Under the pieces are notes generated by a model that saw only the letters and a list, made by a program, of their open reading frames with translations, ran no database searches and was not told where the DNA came from. Positions 1 through 6,236 of a stretch of DNA of 6,236 nt are shown piece by piece (position 1 is the first letter of the stretch; every line of letters begins with the position of its first letter). The position numbers and the translations under genes were made by a program. The stretch covers positions 1 through 6,236 of IMG/VR virus record IMGVR_UViG_3300045988_008288; one strand, 5' to 3'. Source of the DNA: a virus.

Positions 1-55
1 AAATGTCCAAAACAGCAACATCACCAAATTGAGAGTTCGGGAGAACACCCATCAA
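1..55. repeat. Terminal direct repeat, copy 1 (circular-assembly overlap)
   Basis: Bases 1-55 (aaatgtccaaaacagcaacatcaccaaattgagagttcgggagaacacccatcaa) are identical base for base to 6182-6236. Confidence 0.97.
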
Positions 56-871
56 CATATCCTTGTTCCAATTACAATACTTGAGGTCAAACATTGTATC
101 AGATTTCCAGTAATCGGTATTATAATCCGGTAAAACAGGAATCAGAGAAGGAGAAACTCCGTTATAATAATCCACATTATAGGAAGAAGGGTTAGCTTTT
201 TCCCATTGGGACCAACGGAAAAAGTCTTGATAAATCTTCTGATAAGCCAAAAGAGGGAAAATATTTACATAACTATTTTGAATATACCGCTGGGTATAAC
301 CTCTTGGGTCATCATCATGTTTTAAAGAAGTAGACCACCAACGGTTATTCTTAGAAGGAGGAGTTTGGAGAAAATTGCCATAACCAAGATAAGACAACAA
401 TTTATAAGCCAAATCAGCACGAAAAAACCCAAACATATTCTTTAAAGAAGAAAGACCGCCAGGAGACCAACTATCAGAATTCAAACGACTCAAACAACCT
501 GACATAATAGACAAGGTGAAAGAAGGCAAATAATTACCCAAAGACAAATTCTGAGTCAAAGACAAAGCTTGAATCTGATTGATGTCCTGCATTCGAGTTA
601 ACACAGAAGGAGCAGATTTCCAAAGAAGGCGCAAGGGCACAGCATAGAAATCAAAATATTCACGCAACCGGGTATAAGCAGAAGTTTCAACGGGCTGAGT
701 ACGGGTAAAGTATTCAACGTTGAACTTATACTTATCACCAGGCATGGAAATATCCCAGTAAACCGGGAGAAGCTCACCAACTTTCGCAGTAAATGCATTT
801 TTACGTCCAATATCAAATCCAGAACGGTGAGGATGATTCTGAATATTGGACATTCCAGTGTAAGAAGCCAT
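1..871 (-). CDS. Major capsid protein (Microviridae VP1/F), N-terminal 290 codons. The ORF runs off the window start and continues across the circular junction into 6181..5202.
   Basis: Absent from the supplied ORF track because it has no stop inside the window. I read the minus-strand frame with codon tops at 871, 868, ... 4. ATG is at 871..869 and there is no in-frame stop (no TTA/CTA/TCA among plus-strand triplets starting at 2, 5, ... 869). Translation begins MASYTGMSNIQNHPHRSGFDIGRKNAFTAKVGELLPVYWDISMPGDKYKFNVEYFTRTQPVETSAYTRLREYFDFYAVPLRLLWK. This is the typical microvirus capsid N-terminus (RSxFD, GxLxP, PGD, FxAVPxRxxW). The frame is continuous with ORF 5202..6236 through the 55-nt overlap. 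Confidence 0.93.
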   Translation of the reverse strand, partial: MASYTGMSNIQNHPHRSGFDIGRKNAFTAKVGELLPVYWDISMPGDKYKFNVEYFTRTQPVETSAYTRLREYFDFYAVPLRLLWKSAPSVLTRMQDINQIQALSLTQNLSLGNYLPSFTLSIMSGCLSRLNSDSWSPGGLSSLKNMFGFFRADLAYKLLSYLGYGNFLQTPPSKNNRWWSTSLKHDDDPRGYTQRYIQNSYVNIFPLLAYQKIYQDFFRWSQWEKANPSSYNVDYYNGVSPSLIPVLPDYNTDYWKSDTMFDLKYCNWNKDMLMGVLPNSQFGDVAVLDI

Positions 872-888
872 AATTAAAAAATTGAAAA

Positions 889-2601
889 TTAAACAATTAC
901 AGGAACATCCTGGAAAGAGAAAATACCAGACAAATCATTAATCCTCTTGTGCTTAACCTTATCCCTACATTTCATCAATGAAGCGGCAGCCAAACGACGA
1001 ACAAGAGGTAATTCATGGTAAGGTTTTTCCTTATTATCAGGAAGCCTATTATAACGGAAGGAATAGTTACGAAGCTCAAAATCGACCAAATCCTTATCAT
1101 TGGAATCCTCCAAAGTCTGATAAAAATCTACAAGACGATTATATTCATAACGATTCCAAAAATTAACTATTTTCTCAGAGATTATTCGCAAAAACCTCTC
1201 TCGGCAAAAGAGGTCTCCTCCAGGAGTGCCGCTGGACCAGAAGAATTCTGAGCATCCATCTGTTGAATATGTTCGAATAAACTTCGAAATTCCGAGGAAA
1301 AAACGGTAGAGACGGGACGTACGATGAACAGGGTCCAAATCAACACCATCGTACAAACGACATTCAGAAAGAATGAGAACATCACTATACGGTAAATTAC
1401 CTTTAGGCGAAAAAACATTTCGTTCATCATTTCTTTTTCCATAACTATCTACATAATTTAAATACTGTTTACAAAAAGATAATATACTTTGCTTAGAAAG
1501 TACATTAAAAGGATCACATCCTATATCAGCACATCCGCTACGAATGACTCGTCCGGGCGCTGTGAACGCAGCAGATAATAACTGGTAAATACTCGATGGA
1601 GATTTACGAATAGCGTCCGAAAATCGGGGGAATAGTCGAAGGAGATACGGCCATGTAGGTTTAATTGTGCGAAAATATCCATCGCGCTCAACGCGGACTC
1701 CATTAAGGCACTTATCGGCAACTTCGTCAATTTCGGCAACTCGTACCTTTCGAGGAAAGAGATTTGACTCTGTAAATCCAATGGAATGGAAGGATTTAGG
1801 TCGCACCACTTTTGGCATCTGAGTATAAAAGTCGGGTAAAGCGACAAAACTGTTAACATACGACGCAACATACGGAGCTGCGAATCCTCTCGACAGTGAC
1901 GCATCACAACGTCCGTAAGACCAAGCCTTAGATACATTTTCAAGAACAGTTTGCGAGAATCGTTCGGAATTGGAAAACAATAACAAATGCCAATGCGGGC
2001 GGAAACTGGTAGGGCCGTATTCTGATACAGCGTAGTAACGTAATTTTTCATCCGGGTAATAACTTCTTAAACGTTTCAAAAACAAATCAAGATCACGATT
2101 ACAAACATAAGGAATCCTATTGGGAACATTATGGTTAATCTTTCCAAGAATAGACAAAAGCTCCTTAGGTTTCATACCATAAGTAAACCGAATTTCAGGG
2201 TCCTTAAAAGTACGTTCGACGGTAGAGTTTTTTAACCTAACAGAAGCGGAACGAGGAACGCTACGAAAACCAAACAAATAAGTGTTAGGGTCACCAGCGT
2301 CCAAGTCATTGATATCGGGAACGCAGGGTACATCCGCAATATCATCCGTACAAGCTTCAATAGTCGAAACCTCCAAAGTAGGAAGGAAACAAGGAGCATA
2401 AGTAAGAGTAACAAAATAAACATAACGGAATTGAGCAGAATAAGTAGTAAGCAGGTTTGTTTGAATCCCGGAACGACGAAGAATACAAGAAGGGCAAGAG
2501 CCACAGGAAACGACAACAGGCTCATGTGTATACTTGTTGACAACCGTACGAGGATGCTGACAACGAGTCACTAACTTATTCTGCAATTCCTTGGTAATCA
2601 T
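889..2601 (-). CDS. Replication initiation protein (HUH rolling-circle endonuclease; Microviridae VP4 / phiX174 A-like), 570 aa
   Basis: ATG at 2601..2599 and TAA at 891..889. Motif I is FVTLTY (aa 63-68). The HUH motif is HWHLLLF (aa 203-209, nt 1995..1975). The double-tyrosine motif YVASYVN (Y244 at 1872..1870, Y248 at 1860..1858) parallels the phiX174 A-protein YVAKYVNK active site. The N-terminal Cys cluster SCGSCPSC (aa 32-39) resembles what I recall in microvirus VP4 proteins. The start overlaps the upstream peptidase stop (ATGA). Confidence 0.93.
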   Translation of the reverse strand: MITKELQNKLVTRCQHPRTVVNKYTHEPVVVSCGSCPSCILRRSGIQTNLLTTYSAQFRYVYFVTLTYAPCFLPTLEVSTIEACTDDIADVPCVPDINDLDAGDPNTYLFGFRSVPRSASVRLKNSTVERTFKDPEIRFTYGMKPKELLSILGKINHNVPNRIPYVCNRDLDLFLKRLRSYYPDEKLRYYAVSEYGPTSFRPHWHLLLFSNSERFSQTVLENVSKAWSYGRCDASLSRGFAAPYVASYVNSFVALPDFYTQMPKVVRPKSFHSIGFTESNLFPRKVRVAEIDEVADKCLNGVRVERDGYFRTIKPTWPYLLRLFPRFSDAIRKSPSSIYQLLSAAFTAPGRVIRSGCADIGCDPFNVLSKQSILSFCKQYLNYVDSYGKRNDERNVFSPKGNLPYSDVLILSECRLYDGVDLDPVHRTSRLYRFFLGISKFIRTYSTDGCSEFFWSSGTPGGDLFCRERFLRIISEKIVNFWNRYEYNRLVDFYQTLEDSNDKDLVDFELRNYSFRYNRLPDNKEKPYHELPLVRRLAAASLMKCRDKVKHKRINDLSGIFSFQDVPVIV

Positions 2602-2906
2602 TTTCTATCAGTAAAATTAAGTTTCATTTGACGGGGCTTACGACCACGAGCAAAAGAAACGTGAATAAACGTACGATATATTATAAGTTGGTCAAACTCA
2701 AAGGGAGAATCTTCAACTATCGAGGAGAAAACACCAATCGGAAAATCAATAGGCGCCAAGTCAATGGCGTCTCCAGTCAGATGCTGAGAAGTGCTAGAAC
2801 CATTACACGCATTATTCTGCGCTACAGTACGAAGAGCAGAAGTAACAGAAAAATGGATGTTCCGACGGAGAAGCCATTCAATAAATTTCATTAATTCAGG
2901 ATTCAT
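2598..2906 (-). CDS. M15-type zinc peptidase (peptidoglycan D,D-/L,D-peptidase fold), probable endolysin, 102 aa
   Basis: ATG at 2906..2904 and TGA at 2600..2598. Residues 40-49, SQHLTGDAID, fit the SxHxxGxAxD signature exactly. With FIHVSF this gives the H-D-H zinc triad: H42 (2783..2781), D49 (2762..2760), H82 (2663..2661). This triad is characteristic of the M15 family (VanY / Peptidase_M15_3 / phage L-Ala-D-Glu peptidases). No signal peptide is evident. Confidence 0.85.
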   Translation of the reverse strand: MNPELMKFIEWLLRRNIHFSVTSALRTVAQNNACNGSSTSQHLTGDAIDLAPIDFPIGVFSSIVEDSPFEFDQLIIYRTFIHVSFARGRKPRQMKLNFTDRK

Positions 2907-2909
2907 GAC

Positions 2910-3002
2910 TTACGAAAAAATTTGGGCAATAGACGTAAGAAGACTGACAGCAGCTGCAATAATAGCAGACCAGATTTTAGATTTAGTTTCACTTTTCATC
3001 AT
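2910..3002 (-). CDS. Hypothetical 30-aa single-pass membrane peptide (holin-like candidate)
   Basis: Below the ORF-track size cut-off, so I translated it by hand. ATG-ATG at 3002..2997 and TAA at 2912..2910 give MMKSETKSKIWSAIIAAAVSLLTSIAQIFS. It has a charged N-terminus followed by one hydrophobic helix of about 20 aa. Its stop lies 3 nt before the peptidase ATG and its start overlaps the end of the 58-aa ORF by 14 nt (operon-like packing). There is no homology evidence. Confidence 0.35.
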   Translation of the reverse strand: MMKSETKSKIWSAIIAAAVSLLTSIAQIFS

Positions 3003-3165
3003 CAACACCATACTTAAAAGTTGAACAAATAGATACAATTAGCAAACAATCCGGAGTAAGAGCCGAAGAAATAAAATCAGCAATCTGATCAGCAGGAACA
3101 AAAACACACTCATTCTTACCGGGATTCTCCTTAGATTGAATCGAACACAAATAACAATTTTCCAT
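2989..3165 (-). CDS. Hypothetical 58-aa acidic, Cys-containing protein
   Basis: Hand translation with ATG at 3165..3163 and TGA at 2991..2989: MENCYLCSIQSKENPGKNECVFVPADQIADFISSALTPDCLLIVSICSTFKYGVDDEK. It has 9 D/E against 4 K and five Cys, including an N-terminal CxxC. It is the first ORF downstream of the candidate promoter and sits on the same strand as all real genes. I recognise no family. Confidence 0.35.
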   Translation of the reverse strand: MENCYLCSIQSKENPGKNECVFVPADQIADFISSALTPDCLLIVSICSTFKYGVDDEK

Positions 3166-3220
3166 ACACTTAACAAATTTTAATTATACATTAGTTATGC
3201 CTTGTTTTTCAAGGGCGGAG

Positions 3221-3253
3221 CAAAGATAAAAAAAAAGTCTTGAAAAGAGCAAA
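3221..3253 (-). promoter_or_regulatory. Candidate Bacteroides-type promoter (-33 TTTG / -7 TAnnTTTG)
   Basis: On the minus strand, TTTG lies at 3253..3250. A 21-nt spacer (3249..3229) follows, then TATCTTTG at 3228..3221. The second element matches TAnnTTTG exactly. The match sits in an AT-rich tract about 55 nt upstream of the ORF58 ATG. A run of nine T (3236..3228) occupies the end of the spacer and the first T of the -7 box. Confidence 0.35.
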
Positions 3254-3311
3254 TAAACACACATATTTTTTATACTTATTAATAAAAAGCTATATGGGTG
3301 GCAGGCTGGTC

Positions 3312-3387
3312 TGTGAGTTTGCGTATATAAGACAAGAGGAGACTGAAAGCGATGAGGTAAATCGCTTTCCTTCCAGGCAAACTCATG
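3312..3387. other. Compound nested hairpin (two perfect 9-bp stems)
   Basis: The outer stem pairs TGAGTTTGC (3314-3322) with GCAAACTCA (3377-3385). The inner stem pairs GAAAGCGAT (3345-3353) with ATCGCTTTC (3361-3369), closing a 7-nt loop GAGGTAA. A possible extra helix pairs GGAG (3338-3341) with CTTCC (3370-3374). In plus-sense RNA, G-U pairs 3313-3386 and 3312-3387 would extend the outer stem. Confidence 0.6.
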
Positions 3388-3454
3388 TAGGCTTCGCCAA
3401 TTTATATTTTAGGTGTTTAGCAGCGACGGAAGAAAAAAAGATTAGAGGAAGACT

Positions 3455-3478
3455 GCTTACGCGTTGCAAGCGTCAAGC
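3455..3478. other. Hairpin with a single-nucleotide bulge
   Basis: GCTT-ACGC (3455-3462) pairs with GCGT-(C bulge at 3474)-AAGC (3470-3478) around the loop GTTGCAA. That gives 8 bp in total. The element contains the palindrome ACGCGT. Confidence 0.4.
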
Positions 3479-3498
3479 TTGTAGGAAGGCATTACTAT

Positions 3499-3568
3499 AG
3501 CCTACGGCTCTGATTTCAGTCCTAACGTCCCGAAATTCAGTAGGTGTATAACCACGCTACGCGCGGTT
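3499..3568. other. Three adjacent hairpins, two with identical C-TAC-G apices
   Basis: (a) 3499-3509: AGCC / TAC / GGCT. (b) 3510-3540: CTGATTTC pairs with GAAA(T)TCAG, 8 bp with a T3536 bulge and a 14-nt loop. (c) 3550-3568: AACCaCGC / TAC / GCGcGGTT, 7 bp with one mismatch. Confidence 0.45.
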
Positions 3569-3587
3569 GCCAGAAGTTACTCCAAGC

Positions 3588-3621
3588 AATAAAACCCGAC
3601 GCGTATCACTACGAGCCGGGC
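3588..3621 (-). terminator. Intrinsic (rho-independent) terminator after the VP2 gene
   Basis: The minus-strand RNA reads 5'-GCCCGGC-U-CGUA-GUGA-UACG-C-GUCGGGU-3' (3621..3594). This makes 11 pairs, two of them G-U (3621/3594 and 3616/3599), with one U-C mismatch and a GNRA-type GUGA tetraloop. With U3594 the downstream run reads UUUUAUU (3594..3588). The stem starts 22 nt after the VP2 TAG-TAA double stop. The G-U pairs exist only in the minus sense, which supports the strand assignment. Confidence 0.6.
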
Positions 3622-3643
3622 AAAACATGACAAACAAAAGTTA

Positions 3644-4705
3644 CTACCAAGGCAAGAAGTTACCTATAGTGTTACCGATAGAAGTACCATAAGATACAGC
3701 CTTATCAGCATCATAATACTTATATTTCTTACCTTCATTACGAGAGCGATACCAATCCTCAATACTACGAGAACGAGCACGCTCACGATTGAATTTAGCC
3801 GCTTCGAGCTCAAATTCAGCATTAGAATGATTTGAAGCATTGGAAGCTCGAATCAAAGAATCGGCAGTGGATTCAGCAACCTTATTGCTGATTTTCTGAC
3901 CTTTGGCACGGGCATAAGTCAACACCTCATCAGCAAGAACTTTCTTGGCCTGATTATAATTCAAATGTCCATGAGACATCTGATTATAATACTCAGAGGC
4001 CTTAACATTCAAATCAGCCTGCTGCTGCTGGTCAAGATATTTGTTAAGAACAGTCTTAGCTTCAGCATCAAGCAACTGGGAAGTACCTTGAGCCTGCAAA
4101 AGACGACCTGCAAAAGCCATATTATCAAATTCCTGCATTTCCTTGGAATAACCAAGCTGAGCACGAGCCAAACCAGTAGCTTTCAGATACTCACGGGTTT
4201 CTTTCGTCATCTTGGACCAATCAACATTAGAAAGAGACTGCATGGCCTGGGCATCCGCAAGGTTTTTCTGTCCTTGTAACTGAGAGACCTGGGCTTGCTG
4301 AACCTGAGACTGGAATACAGAACCTATAGCCTGCTGGACACCGGAATAATCAGCCTGGAAAGGCTGCATAACAGCAGAACCGGCAGAAGAGGCAGAAGCA
4401 CCAGAACCAACAGACTGTGCAGTTCCAGCAGAACCACCGTTCATCATAAGATAAGGATTTAAACCAGCTTCTTCGAGGCGTTGACGTTGCGCGGAGGCAG
4501 TATTATACTCGTTCTCCTTATTCCACATATTTTCCTGGAAATCGCGCTGCTGCATAGCCATACGCTCGTTAAACTGGTTATTCATTTGATTTATCTTATA
4601 GTTCATCTGGTTGGTTTCCCTGACATTTTGTCTATTCTGTGAATTTTGAATTGCAGAAGAGCCAATGCCAAGGAGACCACCAGAGATTGAACCGAGAAGA
4701 CCCAT
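3644..4705 (-). CDS. DNA pilot / minor capsid protein (Microviridae VP2 / phiX H-like), 353 aa
   Basis: ATG at 4705..4703 and TAG at 3646..3644, followed in frame by TAA. The N-terminus is a Gly-rich hydrophobic segment, MGLLGSISGGLLGIGSSAI. The body is long and Q/N/A-rich, coiled-coil-like. The segment RQRLEEAGLNPYLMM contains AGLNP, which I recognise as a recurrent signature of microvirus VP2 proteins. The start overlaps the upstream ORF stop (TAATG). Confidence 0.85.
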   Translation of the reverse strand: MGLLGSISGGLLGIGSSAIQNSQNRQNVRETNQMNYKINQMNNQFNERMAMQQRDFQENMWNKENEYNTASAQRQRLEEAGLNPYLMMNGGSAGTAQSVGSGASASSAGSAVMQPFQADYSGVQQAIGSVFQSQVQQAQVSQLQGQKNLADAQAMQSLSNVDWSKMTKETREYLKATGLARAQLGYSKEMQEFDNMAFAGRLLQAQGTSQLLDAEAKTVLNKYLDQQQQADLNVKASEYYNQMSHGHLNYNQAKKVLADEVLTYARAKGQKISNKVAESTADSLIRASNASNHSNAEFELEAAKFNRERARSRSIEDWYRSRNEGKKYKYYDADKAVSYGTSIGNTIGNFLPW

Positions 4706-5187
4706 TACTCAGAGGAAGCAGATTCAGCGGAAGCAGCAGCCGCTTTTTCTGCTTCTTGTCTAGCATTTTCAACATCAATCAATTCTTGAGCCCGGGACTC
4801 AAGATTTTCAGCATAAGCCGACAACTCTTTAGACCAAGCAATAATTTCAGAGGGAGCTTGAACATGCCGGGAGCGAACCGTTGCCAAAAGGTCATCATCA
4901 GACATGTTATCCATAATCTGCTGAATCTGAGAAGCAGACTGTTTACTTTGACCAAACTTAGAAGCAATAGCAAGACCAGCACGGGAAGTCAAGTCCTTGG
5001 TGTGAAGAATCAAACGAACATCAGAGGTATAGCGAACCGGACGAGTTTCATCAGTATCATCAACCTCTACACGAAGTTCTTCAGTACAATCAAACTCAGG
5101 AGCAACTGCAAAAGCATCAGGCTCAACATTAGGAGTAAGTCCAGAACCTTGTTCCAGACATTCCAAAGAATTAAATTTTCCTATCAT
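4705..5187 (-). CDS. Hypothetical acidic protein, possible internal scaffolding protein (VP3-like), 160 aa from the ATG
   Basis: The ORF track starts this ORF at a TTG (5193). The first ATG is at 5187..5185 (MIGKFNSLE...). TAA is at 4707..4705, overlapping the VP2 ATG by 1 nt. The protein is strongly D/E-rich (EVDDTDE, MSDDD) with an Ala/Glu-rich helical C-terminus. Its position between the capsid and pilot genes and its size and charge are consistent with a scaffold. I recognise no diagnostic motif. Confidence 0.6.
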   Translation of the reverse strand: MIGKFNSLECLEQGSGLTPNVEPDAFAVAPEFDCTEELRVEVDDTDETRPVRYTSDVRLILHTKDLTSRAGLAIASKFGQSKQSASQIQQIMDNMSDDDLLATVRSRHVQAPSEIIAWSKELSAYAENLESRAQELIDVENARQEAEKAAAASAESASSE

Positions 5188-5201
5188 AATCAAAATAAAA
5201 A

Positions 5202-6236
5202 TTAATAAGGTACACCATCACGAGACAAATTACGGGCAACATAACAACCGATATAAGAATTAATCAACAACTGGTCAGTATCCCAAGTAGAATCAGCAGC
5301 AACACCGAAGATAGGATCAAGGACAGAAGGATTAACCTTAAAGAACTTATAGTTCAAGACAACCTTAGTATTCTTGTCAACATCGCCTTCATTATAGCCA
5401 AAGCCAAACCAACCAGAAAGAAGAGATTCAGTAACAGGCGAAACCCAAGACTTAAGAGTAGTGGTAAATGCACCGTTAACAACATCAAGCTTAGTTTTCC
5501 AATTGAAATAACGAGGATTATATCCAGCGTTAAACAAATTAGCAATAGAAGCTCTTGGAGAATTAAGAATCTGTGTCATAGGAAGAACTTCCATACCAAT
5601 ATTATCAAATTCCGGGATAGGAAGGGATTCAGCATCAGTCACAAGAAGTTGACCGTCTTGACCAGTAATCGTATAATCAAGCAAAGGCACGGCATGGTAA
5701 ATACACATAACAACACAATGTTCGTCAGTAGTATAAGTAAATGAACCATTGCCAGCACCGACTCCTTTACCAGCAATAACAGCAACATTATCTTCGGAAG
5801 CAAGGTTATTATTGACAACCTCACTGATATCAAGGTTACGAGAGATACCACCGATATAGGTACACATATTAGAAAGAGCTTGAGGCAAGTTCACACCAAA
5901 ATGTTTGCGTATCTGTTCACGGTAGTCACTATCACCAGACTGACTGATTTCTTTCCAACGCTGAAGAGCTTCGGCCTGACGAAGAGCGAGAACCGTAAAT
6001 TGAGACTGTAAAGTAGACAAATCAACACGAAGAGTTGATGCAAAAGGAACAGTATTAGAGGCAGAGGCTTGCAAAGCAAAGAAAGGAACTGGAGCAGAAT
6101 TAGAAGTAATAGCAGAAGCAACACCAACAGTACTCTTTTTATCATCAGGACCTAAAACAACATTAGAAGCGCCAGAATTAGAAATGTCCAAAACAGCAAC
6201 ATCACCAAATTGAGAGTTCGGGAGAACACCCATCAA
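5202..6236 (-). CDS. Major capsid protein VP1/F, C-terminal part (aa 273-616 of the circularised ORF)
   Basis: The ORF is open to the window end and stops at TAA 5204..5202. The leading 'M' in the track is really Leu (TTG at 6236..6234) inside the protein. Bases 6182-6236 duplicate 1-55 in the same frame. The unique coding length is therefore 871 + 980 = 1851 nt, or 616 aa plus stop. Confidence 0.93.
   Translation of the reverse strand: MMGVLPNSQFGDVAVLDISNSGASNVVLGPDDKKSTVGVASAITSNSAPVPFFALQASASNTVPFASTLRVDLSTLQSQFTVLALRQAEALQRWKEISQSGDSDYREQIRKHFGVNLPQALSNMCTYIGGISRNLDISEVVNNNLASEDNVAVIAGKGVGAGNGSFTYTTDEHCVVMCIYHAVPLLDYTITGQDGQLLVTDAESLPIPEFDNIGMEVLPMTQILNSPRASIANLFNAGYNPRYFNWKTKLDVVNGAFTTTLKSWVSPVTESLLSGWFGFGYNEGDVDKNTKVVLNYKFFKVNPSVLDPIFGVAADSTWDTDQLLINSYIGCYVARNLSRDGVPY
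6182..6236. repeat. Terminal direct repeat, copy 2 (circular-assembly overlap)
   Basis: This is an exact 55/55 match to 1-55. It lies inside the capsid ORF and preserves its reading frame. Confidence 0.97.

Follow-up and report, generated by a model that had tools for sequence, protein, structure and literature searches.

Background

Few phages of the human gut are as abundant as microviruses, yet we know of essentially no cis-acting replication signals outside the phiX174/G4 group, and of nothing on how Bacteroides primes synthesis on incoming single-stranded DNA (ssDNA). In the systems that have been described, the GCGNAGC / GCGNNAGC mini-hairpin is extraordinarily stable as DNA and occurs where the complementary strand is primed in G4 (GCGAAAGC) and in St-1 and alpha3 (GCGTTAGC), in the single-strand initiation site ssiA of plasmid RSF1010 (CCGAAGG) and in the single-stranded promoters of N4 (PMC13037366). 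For conserved intergenic hairpins of further uncultured microviruses, a role in initiating the negative strand has been proposed (PMC9865509), and a single-strand origin, or sso, is defined operationally by acting on the single strand in just one orientation (PMC4595007). Here we analyze a nested pair of perfect 9-bp stems in a 6,236-nt stretch of viral DNA (positions 1 to 6,236 of the IMG/VR record IMGVR_UViG_3300045988_008288, hereafter the window). An initial annotation, made from the sequence alone, had described the pair as a compound hairpin at 3312-3387.

We propose that these stems may form part of a replication origin that acts on ssDNA. Conserved intergenic hairpins are an already known kind of element in microviruses; what is new is this family, its three-way junction, the evidence on strand and on DNA chemistry, the portability of the adjoining core and the orientation of that core on the T-rich strand.

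Results

The nested stems form a conserved three-way junction

Both 9-bp stems are present exactly where the initial annotation placed them. The outer inverted repeat, TGAGTTTGC (3314-3322) and GCAAACTCA (3377-3385), encloses the inner one, GAAAGCGAT (3345-3353) and ATCGCTTTC (3361-3369), whose 7-nt loop reads GAGGTAA on the plus strand and TTACCTC in gene sense, every gene of the window being on the minus strand. The compound hairpin is borne out and can be refined, as a third mini-hairpin stands between the two stems and the element is a three-way junction. Its parts and its two conserved neighbors are:

3314..3385, minus strand: three-way junction (P1, P2 and P3)
3385-3377 / 3322-3314, minus strand: P1, the outer stem, TGAGTTTGC/GCAAACTCA
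3377-3369, minus strand: P2, mini-hairpin between the stems, CCT-GGA-AGG in the window and CCY-GNA-RGG in general
3369-3361 / 3353-3345, minus strand: P3, the inner stem, with loop TTACCTC (3360-3354)
3344-3323, minus strand: unpaired joining strand, AGTCTCCT-CTTGTCT-TATATAC
3290..3313, minus strand: conserved tail after the junction, CAGACCAGCCTGCCACCCATATAGC, mean column identity 0.86
3390..3398, minus strand: mini-hairpin H6, GGC-GAA-GCC, 4 nt 5' (gene sense) of the junction

Relatives were gathered by scanning viral and metagenome collections for patterns and by searching the retrieved loci (given below by L numbers) with profiles. The nested domain occurs in 140 related loci, and the counts that follow are over 103 distinct full-length copies. 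P1, P2 and P3 together are 99.6% canonical, and shifting the 3' partner by 1-3 columns lowers this figure to 23-42%. P2, which is 100% paired, shows C-G to T-A changes and has a G-N-A loop in 98 copies; most relatives carry CCC-GAA-GGG, of which the window is a variant. P3 is 99.6% canonical, its pair 3363-3351 being G-C in 61 sequences and T-A in 42, and its loop is TTACCTC in 95. The joining strand measures 22-25 nt across relatives. H6 has a GAA, GTA or GGA loop in all 103, with pairs changing from G-C to A-T (33 sequences) and from C-G to T-A (11). P1 is 99.5% canonical and never covaries: together with the CTTGTCT of the joining strand it is invariant in sequence among relatives. The initial annotation had looked to compensatory changes in relatives as a check on the stems; the inner stem and the P2 mini-hairpin show them, while the outer stem does not.

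It had also considered a single perfect 9-bp repeat within about 100 nt to arise by chance only a few percent of the time. This is too optimistic genome-wide, with 3 such repeats observed (gap 3-100 nt) and 2.75 expected from 1000 dinucleotide shuffles. A properly nested pair is rare, however, appearing in 0.5% of the shuffled genomes, and its conservation with compensatory changes in more than 100 relatives supports the claim that the stems are non-accidental. Folding of the ~100-nt region on both strands gives z-scores of -2.8 for the viral strand as DNA, -2.1 for the viral-sense RNA and -3.8 for the plus-strand RNA. The stems had further been called the strongest structural signal in the window; they are real, but the most conserved signal is a 41-nt core at 3543-3583. 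That no annotated feature explains them holds for the public records of the nearest relatives as well, where the region is unannotated or carries a doubtful hypothetical coding sequence (CDS).

Two other roles for P1 were considered. It is no intrinsic terminator: in gene sense it is followed by CAGACCAGCC instead of a T-run, and a generic scan finds no terminator there. The TGAGTTTG in P1 with an upstream TTTG could mimic a promoter, but the spacing is 12-14 nt instead of ~19-21, the window has TTGG, and the idea is speculation only. The scan pattern TGAGTTTGC-N17-ATGAGGTAAAT also matched four large viral contigs, three of 234-236 kb and one of 117 kb (L043 1346-1382, L045 8088-8124, L049 2537-2573 and L054 462-498). 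These show no similarity to the window proteins, and their number is about the chance expectation.

The junction belongs to a larger conserved block

The nested element is the 3' module, in gene sense, of a conserved block of about 330 nt (about 3290 to 3620). In gene-sense order the block consists of a terminator, the 41-nt core, H3, H4, a middle domain, an A/T spacer, H6, the junction and the tail, with a promoter beyond. The parts between terminator and spacer are:

3543..3583, minus strand: ultra-conserved 41-nt core, GGAGTAACTTCTGGC, then hairpin AACCGCGC-GTA-GCGTGGTT (3568-3550), then ATACACC
3510..3540, minus strand: hairpin H3, CTG-A-ATTTCGG ... CTGAAAT-CAG, variable apex
3499..3509, minus strand: mini-hairpin H4, AGCC-GTA-GGCT, 100% paired
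3424..3475, minus strand: middle domain, closed by TGACG/CGTCG, with an inner hairpin around GCAACGCG and a variable apex

The core hairpin has 8 bp with an invariant G·T in the stem, and its loop is G-N-A in 102 of the 103 sequences. H3 changes from T-A to C-G in 35 sequences and has one invariant G·T; in L136 and L005 it is made of other sequences with the pairing preserved. The H4 loop is GTTA, GTA, GTCA, GAA, GCCA, GTAA or GCAA in 100 sequences, and the middle domain is 96.9% canonical with many G·T cells. Compensatory changes are seen in P2, P3, H6, H3, H4, the middle domain and the terminator. Helices were counted one by one, as whole-block RNAalifold on both strands gave poor global structures owing to indels.

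The columns of the core average 0.94 in identity and those of the nested domain 0.92, while four-fold sites in the Rep, scaffold and pilot genes of these genomes give 0.67-0.82. Both parts are thus more conserved than synonymous sites, a sign of purifying selection. The distance between core and nested domain ranges from 150 to 390 nt among loci. Rfam 15 (E<=1; window and four relatives) has no family overlapping the block, and ARAGORN run on nine sources finds no tRNA or tmRNA at it.

A second block type (L016, L061, L073, L003 and L070) has a 150-200-nt insertion with extra GCGAAGC / GCGCAGC mini-hairpins and a T-arm-like CGG-TTCAAGT-CCG. Block types are swapped between close relatives: L070 has the second type, and L153 and L154, with a Rep 89-90% identical to that of L070, have the window type.

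Pairing and loops point to the gene-sense strand as DNA

Summed over all helices, the gene-sense strand shows 6035 Watson-Crick, 605 G·T and 47 A·C cells, with several invariant G·T. The large excess of G·T over A·C cells identifies the gene-sense strand as the strand selected to fold.

Four hairpins (P2, H6, the core and H4) share G-N-A or G-N-N-A loops, in which the first base is G, the last is A and the middle is free. The loops of P2 are GAA in 70 sequences, GTA in 15 and GGA in 13; those of H6 are GAA in 100, GTA in 2 and GGA in 1. The core has GTA in 71, GAA in 25 and GCA in 6. H4 has GTTA in 47, GTA and GTCA in 14 each, GAA in 12, GCCA in 7 and other loops in the rest, so that its tetraloops, mainly GTTA, GTCA and GCCA, are non-GNRA. 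Across the whole window genome, three of the four c(GNA)g hairpins on the gene-sense strand lie inside these 300 nt, where 0.11 are expected, and the other strand has 0. Since such loops are the DNA mini-hairpin motif of ssDNA-phage priming origins, the fold most likely acts on the packaged gene-sense strand, as DNA rather than RNA.

The core is shared with unrelated phages and follows the T-rich strand

The core is ~98% identical in Dulem virus 262 (L005, L085), whose Rep aligns to that of the window over just 79 residues at 35% and whose capsid protein is 21% identical. Two further lineages, L070/L102/L134/L153/L154 and L136, have the core and most of the block without the nested domain, and tblastn finds no similarity between them and the window proteins. 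Their block is ~95% identical over ~300 nt to a variant present in some window-clade genomes. The core copies are at:

L005, 2374-2437
L070, 4196-4266
L136, 1982-2058
L153, 3189-3271
L154, 1672-1753

The core stem has compensatory changes in L153 and L154 (AACCGTGC-GAA-GCATGGTT and AACCATGT-GAA-ACATGGTT), and the sequence 5' of the core is wholly different between lineages. The core pattern has 0 matches in 185,579 bacterial species genomes, and for lack of a bacterial match a host gene, a host repeat, a bacterial miniature inverted-repeat transposable element and attB were all rejected as its identity. The core resembles a cassette that is exchanged horizontally. Next to it, the nested hairpin and H6 make up a module of their own, found only in the window clade.

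In L136 (2065-2160, minus strand), three tandem ~31-nt repeats (CTTCCTTAACATTAAATTAACATGAATATAAC-like) stand directly 5' of the core; they are iteron-like and seen in this lineage only. A locus search with the L136 Rep returned no relatives. L083 is a 9.5-kb low-coverage contig in which a window-clade genome is joined to AcrB/OEP efflux genes (3640-3720), ~20 nt past the core and inside H3. Either the contig is chimeric, or the join represents a second kind of recombination junction at the cassette.

In L070/L102/L134/L153/L154 and in L136 the cassette runs opposite to the genes, an arrangement that recurs in independent assemblies. Composition at four-fold sites explains this inversion. The gene strand has T at 53% of these sites in the window and at 60% in L005, and A at 61-68% in L070, L102, L136, L153 and L154; cassette-less relatives (L155-L158) have A at 56-65%. 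The cassette thus follows the T-rich strand: its G-N-A side is on that strand in 4/4 lineages while gene orientation is split 2:2, a comparison that concerns the core only, as the nested domain occurs in one clade. The T-richness of ssDNA phages has an accepted cause in C-to-T deamination while the DNA is single-stranded (PMC1087484). Shared by phages with unrelated Reps, strand-locked in orientation and similar in plan to ssiA or G4, the core cassette appears to behave like a single-strand initiation signal read by the host.

The block lies outside the transcription unit of a Bacteroides microvirus

The ends of the window carry a perfect 55-nt direct repeat (1-55 = 6182-6236), so that the window corresponds to a circular contig of 6181 nt. 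It is a circular genome of the Microviridae. The nearest public genomes, at ~85% nucleotide identity, are the faecal Microviridae Dulem virus 236 and 257 and bajarodmic virus 1134 and 410. Genes and transcription signals are as follows:

~877 wrapping across the window ends to 5202, minus strand: major capsid protein (VP1)
5193-4705, minus strand: scaffold protein
4705-3644, minus strand: DNA pilot protein, stop codon 3646-3644
3586..3620, minus strand: intrinsic terminator of the gene-sense operon, hairpin 3620-3595, then TTTTATTGCTTG (T-run, TTTT)
3221..3253, minus strand: Bacteroidetes-type promoter, TTTG (3253-3250), 21 nt, TATCTTTG (3228-3221)
3165-2989, minus strand: 58-aa open reading frame (ORF)
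2906-2598, minus strand: M15 peptidase
2601-889, minus strand: HUH Rep, 570 aa

Because the Rep stop (889) and the VP1 start (~877) abut, 3166-3643 is the sole intergenic region. The promoter, upstream of the genes for the 58-aa ORF, the peptidase and Rep, is the sole complete Bacteroidetes-type promoter (TTTG-N21-TAnnTTTG) in the genome, and relatives have TATATTTG at the matching location. The plus strand of the window genome contains zero TAnnTTTG promoters, and a sigma-70 promoter scan was uninformative. The terminator stands 24 nt past the pilot stop codon. It has two stem variants, each retaining G·T on the gene-sense strand, with compensatory changes in the inner stem. The genome appears to be one transcription unit, in which a single promoter serves all genes round the circle and one terminator stands just before the block.

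Two ORFs that overlap the region were rejected as genes. The plus-strand ORF at 3240-3500 (86 aa) is ruled out by 1-3-nt indels among close relatives, seen in the 22-25-nt joining strand, and the same indels make non-coding the hypothetical CDS placed over the nested domain in Dulem virus 257 (L002 2580-2783, minus strand; XCD03224.1). Pfam gave no matches for the ORF overlapping the nested domain.

Matches of Rep to profiles are confined to residues ~7-278, and its C-terminal ~290 aa have no recognised domain. The pilot protein occurs as two allelic classes in otherwise similar genomes, at ~68-72% or 88-98% amino acid identity to the window (L001-L152), and the peptidase is likewise mosaic among window-clade genomes. 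This mosaicism indicates frequent recombination within the clade.

Some relatives are integrated in Bacteroides chromosomes

A close relative is integrated beside a usp gene; at the protein level this gene shares 98% identity with its B. rodentium counterpart, which assigns the host to the genus Bacteroides. L138 is a complete prophage with a usp gene on one side and, on the other, a gene for a TPR protein and then gyrA. It is flanked by the direct repeats CAATATCAGGA(GA/TT)ATGTTTAATATAA (1672-1701 and 8170-8200), and L119 has the same left junction (5940-5975). Empty Bacteroides sites downstream of usp read AATAAT-N6-ATTATGTTTAATATAA. The dif-like att core AATATCAGnAGAATGTTTAATATAA, a 26-nt direct repeat defined from attL and attR of L138, is also found in a minority of free genomes (L002 2534-2558, L003 2563-2587, L004 2577-2601 and L092 3685-3709), 75-95 nt from the nested domain. 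A XerCD/dif integration route has been proposed for Bacteroidetes microviruses (PMC3091885), and the arrangement of L138 and L119 agrees with it. We considered the nested hairpin as part of attP and rejected it, the dif-like site being a separate one that is absent from the window and from 109 of the 115 nested-domain loci. The window phage, having no dif-like site, may be unable to lysogenise.

Discussion

A candidate origin for complementary-strand priming

We read the sole non-coding region as a cis-acting replication-origin region. Within it, we give an about even chance to the nested stems being a replication-origin module active on ssDNA, probably for complementary-strand priming. The block resembles sso and single-strand initiation (ssi) elements in generic terms: it is non-coding and extensively self-paired (helices 98-99.6% canonical), with a G·T bias on the T-rich strand. 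Two observations lead us to assign the nested module to a priming apparatus. Selection keeps the 3-bp G-N-A mini-hairpins P2 and H6, which are relevant only in free ssDNA, and the junction has on offer a duplex that does not vary, a loop that is fixed and a template strand that lies exposed.

We hypothesize the following course of events. Circular ssDNA would enter the Bacteroides cell and be coated by the host single-strand binding protein, while the highly stable hairpins (the G-N-A and G-N-N-A mini-hairpins and the two 9-bp stems) would remain folded. They would then present the invariant P1 duplex, the fixed 7-nt loop and the 22-nt unpaired strand to a host priming enzyme, conceivably a primase, a primosome or RNA polymerase. 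This enzyme would make the primer for complementary-strand synthesis, converting the ssDNA to the replicative form. Both the priming function and the choice of enzyme are what we infer from the features of the fold.

Several observations weigh against this proposal. Our search found no sequence similarity to any characterised origin. The nested domain is confined to the window clade, and three other lineages have the core cassette but lack the domain. The cassette can therefore work in places where there is no junction, and the junction may serve another purpose, for example as the nick site of the clade's cognate Rep. The orientation argument comes from the core cassette in four lineages and not from the nested domain, and that the T-rich strand is the packaged one is suggested by composition. 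Pairing in P1, which never covaries, is backed only by perfect complementarity and rare single mismatches. Finally, it is the plus-strand RNA fold that has the better z-score (-3.8).

Alternative explanations

The main rival, which we consider unlikely, is that the three-way junction is the viral-strand (+) origin of the clade's Rep. Its stems would expose the joining strand (CTTGTCT) or the P3 loop for the HUH Rep to nick, starting rolling-circle synthesis, and later to cut and re-join unit-length circles. Nicking at a few nucleotides 3' of a hairpin is common among HUH relaxases and Reps; CTTG is part of phiX174/pC194-type nick sites, and in R388 the region of the nick is TTGTCT/ATAG. The domain co-occurs one-to-one with the window-clade Rep (80-95% amino acid identity) and is absent from lineages that have other Reps yet carry the core cassette. 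P1 and CTTGTCT are invariant, as expected of protein recognition, and the genome offers no other non-coding region for an origin. On the other hand, the 30-nt phiX174 origin CAACTTGATATTAATAACACTATAGACCAC has 0 matches at <=3 mismatches in the window, and its 10-nt recognition part matches only at chance level and nowhere in this region. Origins of the phiX type need no hairpin and sit within gene A. The spacing between P3 and CTTGTCT shifts by 1-3 nt, and selected 3-bp mini-hairpins that matter only in free ssDNA are typical of priming signals. Two specific versions of a Rep origin were rejected. CTTGTCT as a shared nick motif recurs ~100 nt after the core in L005, but with 4 copies on the T-rich strand of L005 and 0 in its relative L085 this is chance. 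A CRESS-type origin calls for the nonanucleotide NANTATTAC in the loop of a 9-11-bp stem, and the P3 loop is the 7-mer TTACCTC.

It is improbable that the element is instead a site in double-stranded DNA, serving the adjacent promoter as operator or in an architectural role, or else an accessory to the XerCD/dif site at which temperate relatives integrate. The promoter is 60-90 nt downstream and P1 is invariant in sequence. In the prophages L138 and L119 the chromosome junctions are ~60-110 nt from the nested domain, and the dif-like attP in free relatives is 75-95 nt from it. The window, however, has no dif-like site within 3 mismatches, nor is there one near the domain in 109 of the 115 window-clade loci, and the compensatory changes, the strand-asymmetric G·T and the G-N-A loops would be meaningless in duplex DNA.

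Slightly less probable still is that the fold acts in RNA, as a structured 3' untranslated region or small RNA made by terminator read-through, as a plus-strand antisense RNA or as an attenuator for the downstream operon. This would fit the position of the block, just upstream of the promoter and downstream of the terminator, and the fact that the best z-score is that of the plus-strand RNA. The loop reads UUACCUC in gene sense, resembling an anti-Shine-Dalgarno sequence, and GAGGUAA in plus sense, and some plus-strand loops read UUCG or UACG. Against a plus-strand RNA, the 605 G·T cells turn into A·C mismatches, the U-N-C/U-N-N-C loops match no known stable RNA motif and TAnnTTTG promoters are absent from the strand. 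A gene-sense RNA would come from a block that sits past a conserved terminator, with mostly non-GNRA tetraloops and no conserved promoter, as each lineage has an entirely different sequence 5' of the core. No Rfam family is found at E<=1, and the cassette is co-directional with the genes in two lineages and convergent in two, so that it has no consistent transcript.

Complementarity by chance, or merely inherited from a recent common ancestor, is effectively refuted: a single 9-bp inverted repeat is expected ~2.7 times per genome and the outer stem does not covary, but nesting is rare in shuffles, the domain is conserved beyond synonymous sites and compensatory changes are recurrent and numerous.

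Implications for microvirus replication

The proposed origin module can be extended to the other lineages. It is conceivable that the whole block is a strand-locked origin module of Bacteroides microviruses with a core read by host enzymes, and that the lineages with A-rich genes (L070/L153/L154 and L136) package the non-coding strand, making them the first negative-sense Microviridae. We regard this extended reading as tentative, with the balance of our judgment tilted against it. If the strand assignment is true, the assumption that all Microviridae are positive-sense would be overturned. Complementary-strand genes were unknown in the family save for one ORF in a 2012 survey (PMC3394797), and our literature search found no paper describing the element or negative-sense microviruses.

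The block provides a concrete, mutable map of signals (terminator, 41-nt core, G-N-A mini-hairpins and three-way junction) with exact pairs, loops and invariant bases. The element could mark, from sequence alone, which strand a metagenomic microvirus packages, and might account for the transfer of origin cassettes between unrelated phages that share a host.

Comparison with known systems

The DnaG-dependent complementary-strand origins (oric) of G4, St-1, phiK and alpha3 are, like this block, intergenic hairpin clusters on the packaged microvirus strand. They share with it the G-N-(N)-A mini-hairpin, which here is most often c-GTTA-g in H4 and GCGTAGC, GCGAAGC or GCGCAGC in the core, and they are read by host machinery rather than the phage Rep, as we propose here. 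The block differs in its larger size (~330 nt, at least 8 helices), its three-way junction and its Bacteroides host. We noticed no resemblance to the origin hairpins I-III of G4, St-1 and alpha3 beyond the loop motif, in a comparison that did not set the sequences directly side by side.

Plasmid sso cassettes are exchanged between replicons with unrelated Reps, and such movement is seen here for the core. The sso of rolling-circle plasmids and integrative and conjugative elements (ssoA, ssoU, ssoT, pBAA1 and ICEBs1 sso1) and the M13/f1 minus-strand origin are likewise non-coding regions of 150-350 nt with several stem-loops. They act as folded ssDNA; known sso are orientation-specific (PMC4595007), and the core cassette appears strand-locked from the comparison of four lineages. 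Unlike ssoA, the block has no RSB-like element that we could identify and no demonstrable promoter-like -33/-7 geometry. The ssoA CS-6 sequence (TAGCGT) does appear in the window core but was rejected as a link, its first T being a freely varying loop base (GAAGCGT and GCAGCGT in relatives).

In RSF1010, the 40-nt ssiA and ssiB are read by the primase RepB'. The CCGAAGG of ssiA compares with P2, which is CCCGAAGGG in most relatives, and the 41-nt core follows the ssiA plan, in which a G-N-A-capped hairpin stands between a conserved 5' flank and a short 3' flank, also conserved. The RSF1010 reader is a plasmid-encoded primase while no primase gene is evident in the window genome, and sequence similarity to ssiA is limited to the loop motif.

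The phiX174 primosome assembly site (the PriA / n' hairpin) and the hairpins of reekeekee- and roodoodoo-microviruses are also conserved, intergenic and marked by compensatory substitutions, and a negative-strand start has been proposed for them (PMC9865509). They are simple hairpins that differ from this element in sequence and host. Compared to them, the present block adds evidence on the strand that folds, on loops of the DNA type and on orientation with the T-rich strand.

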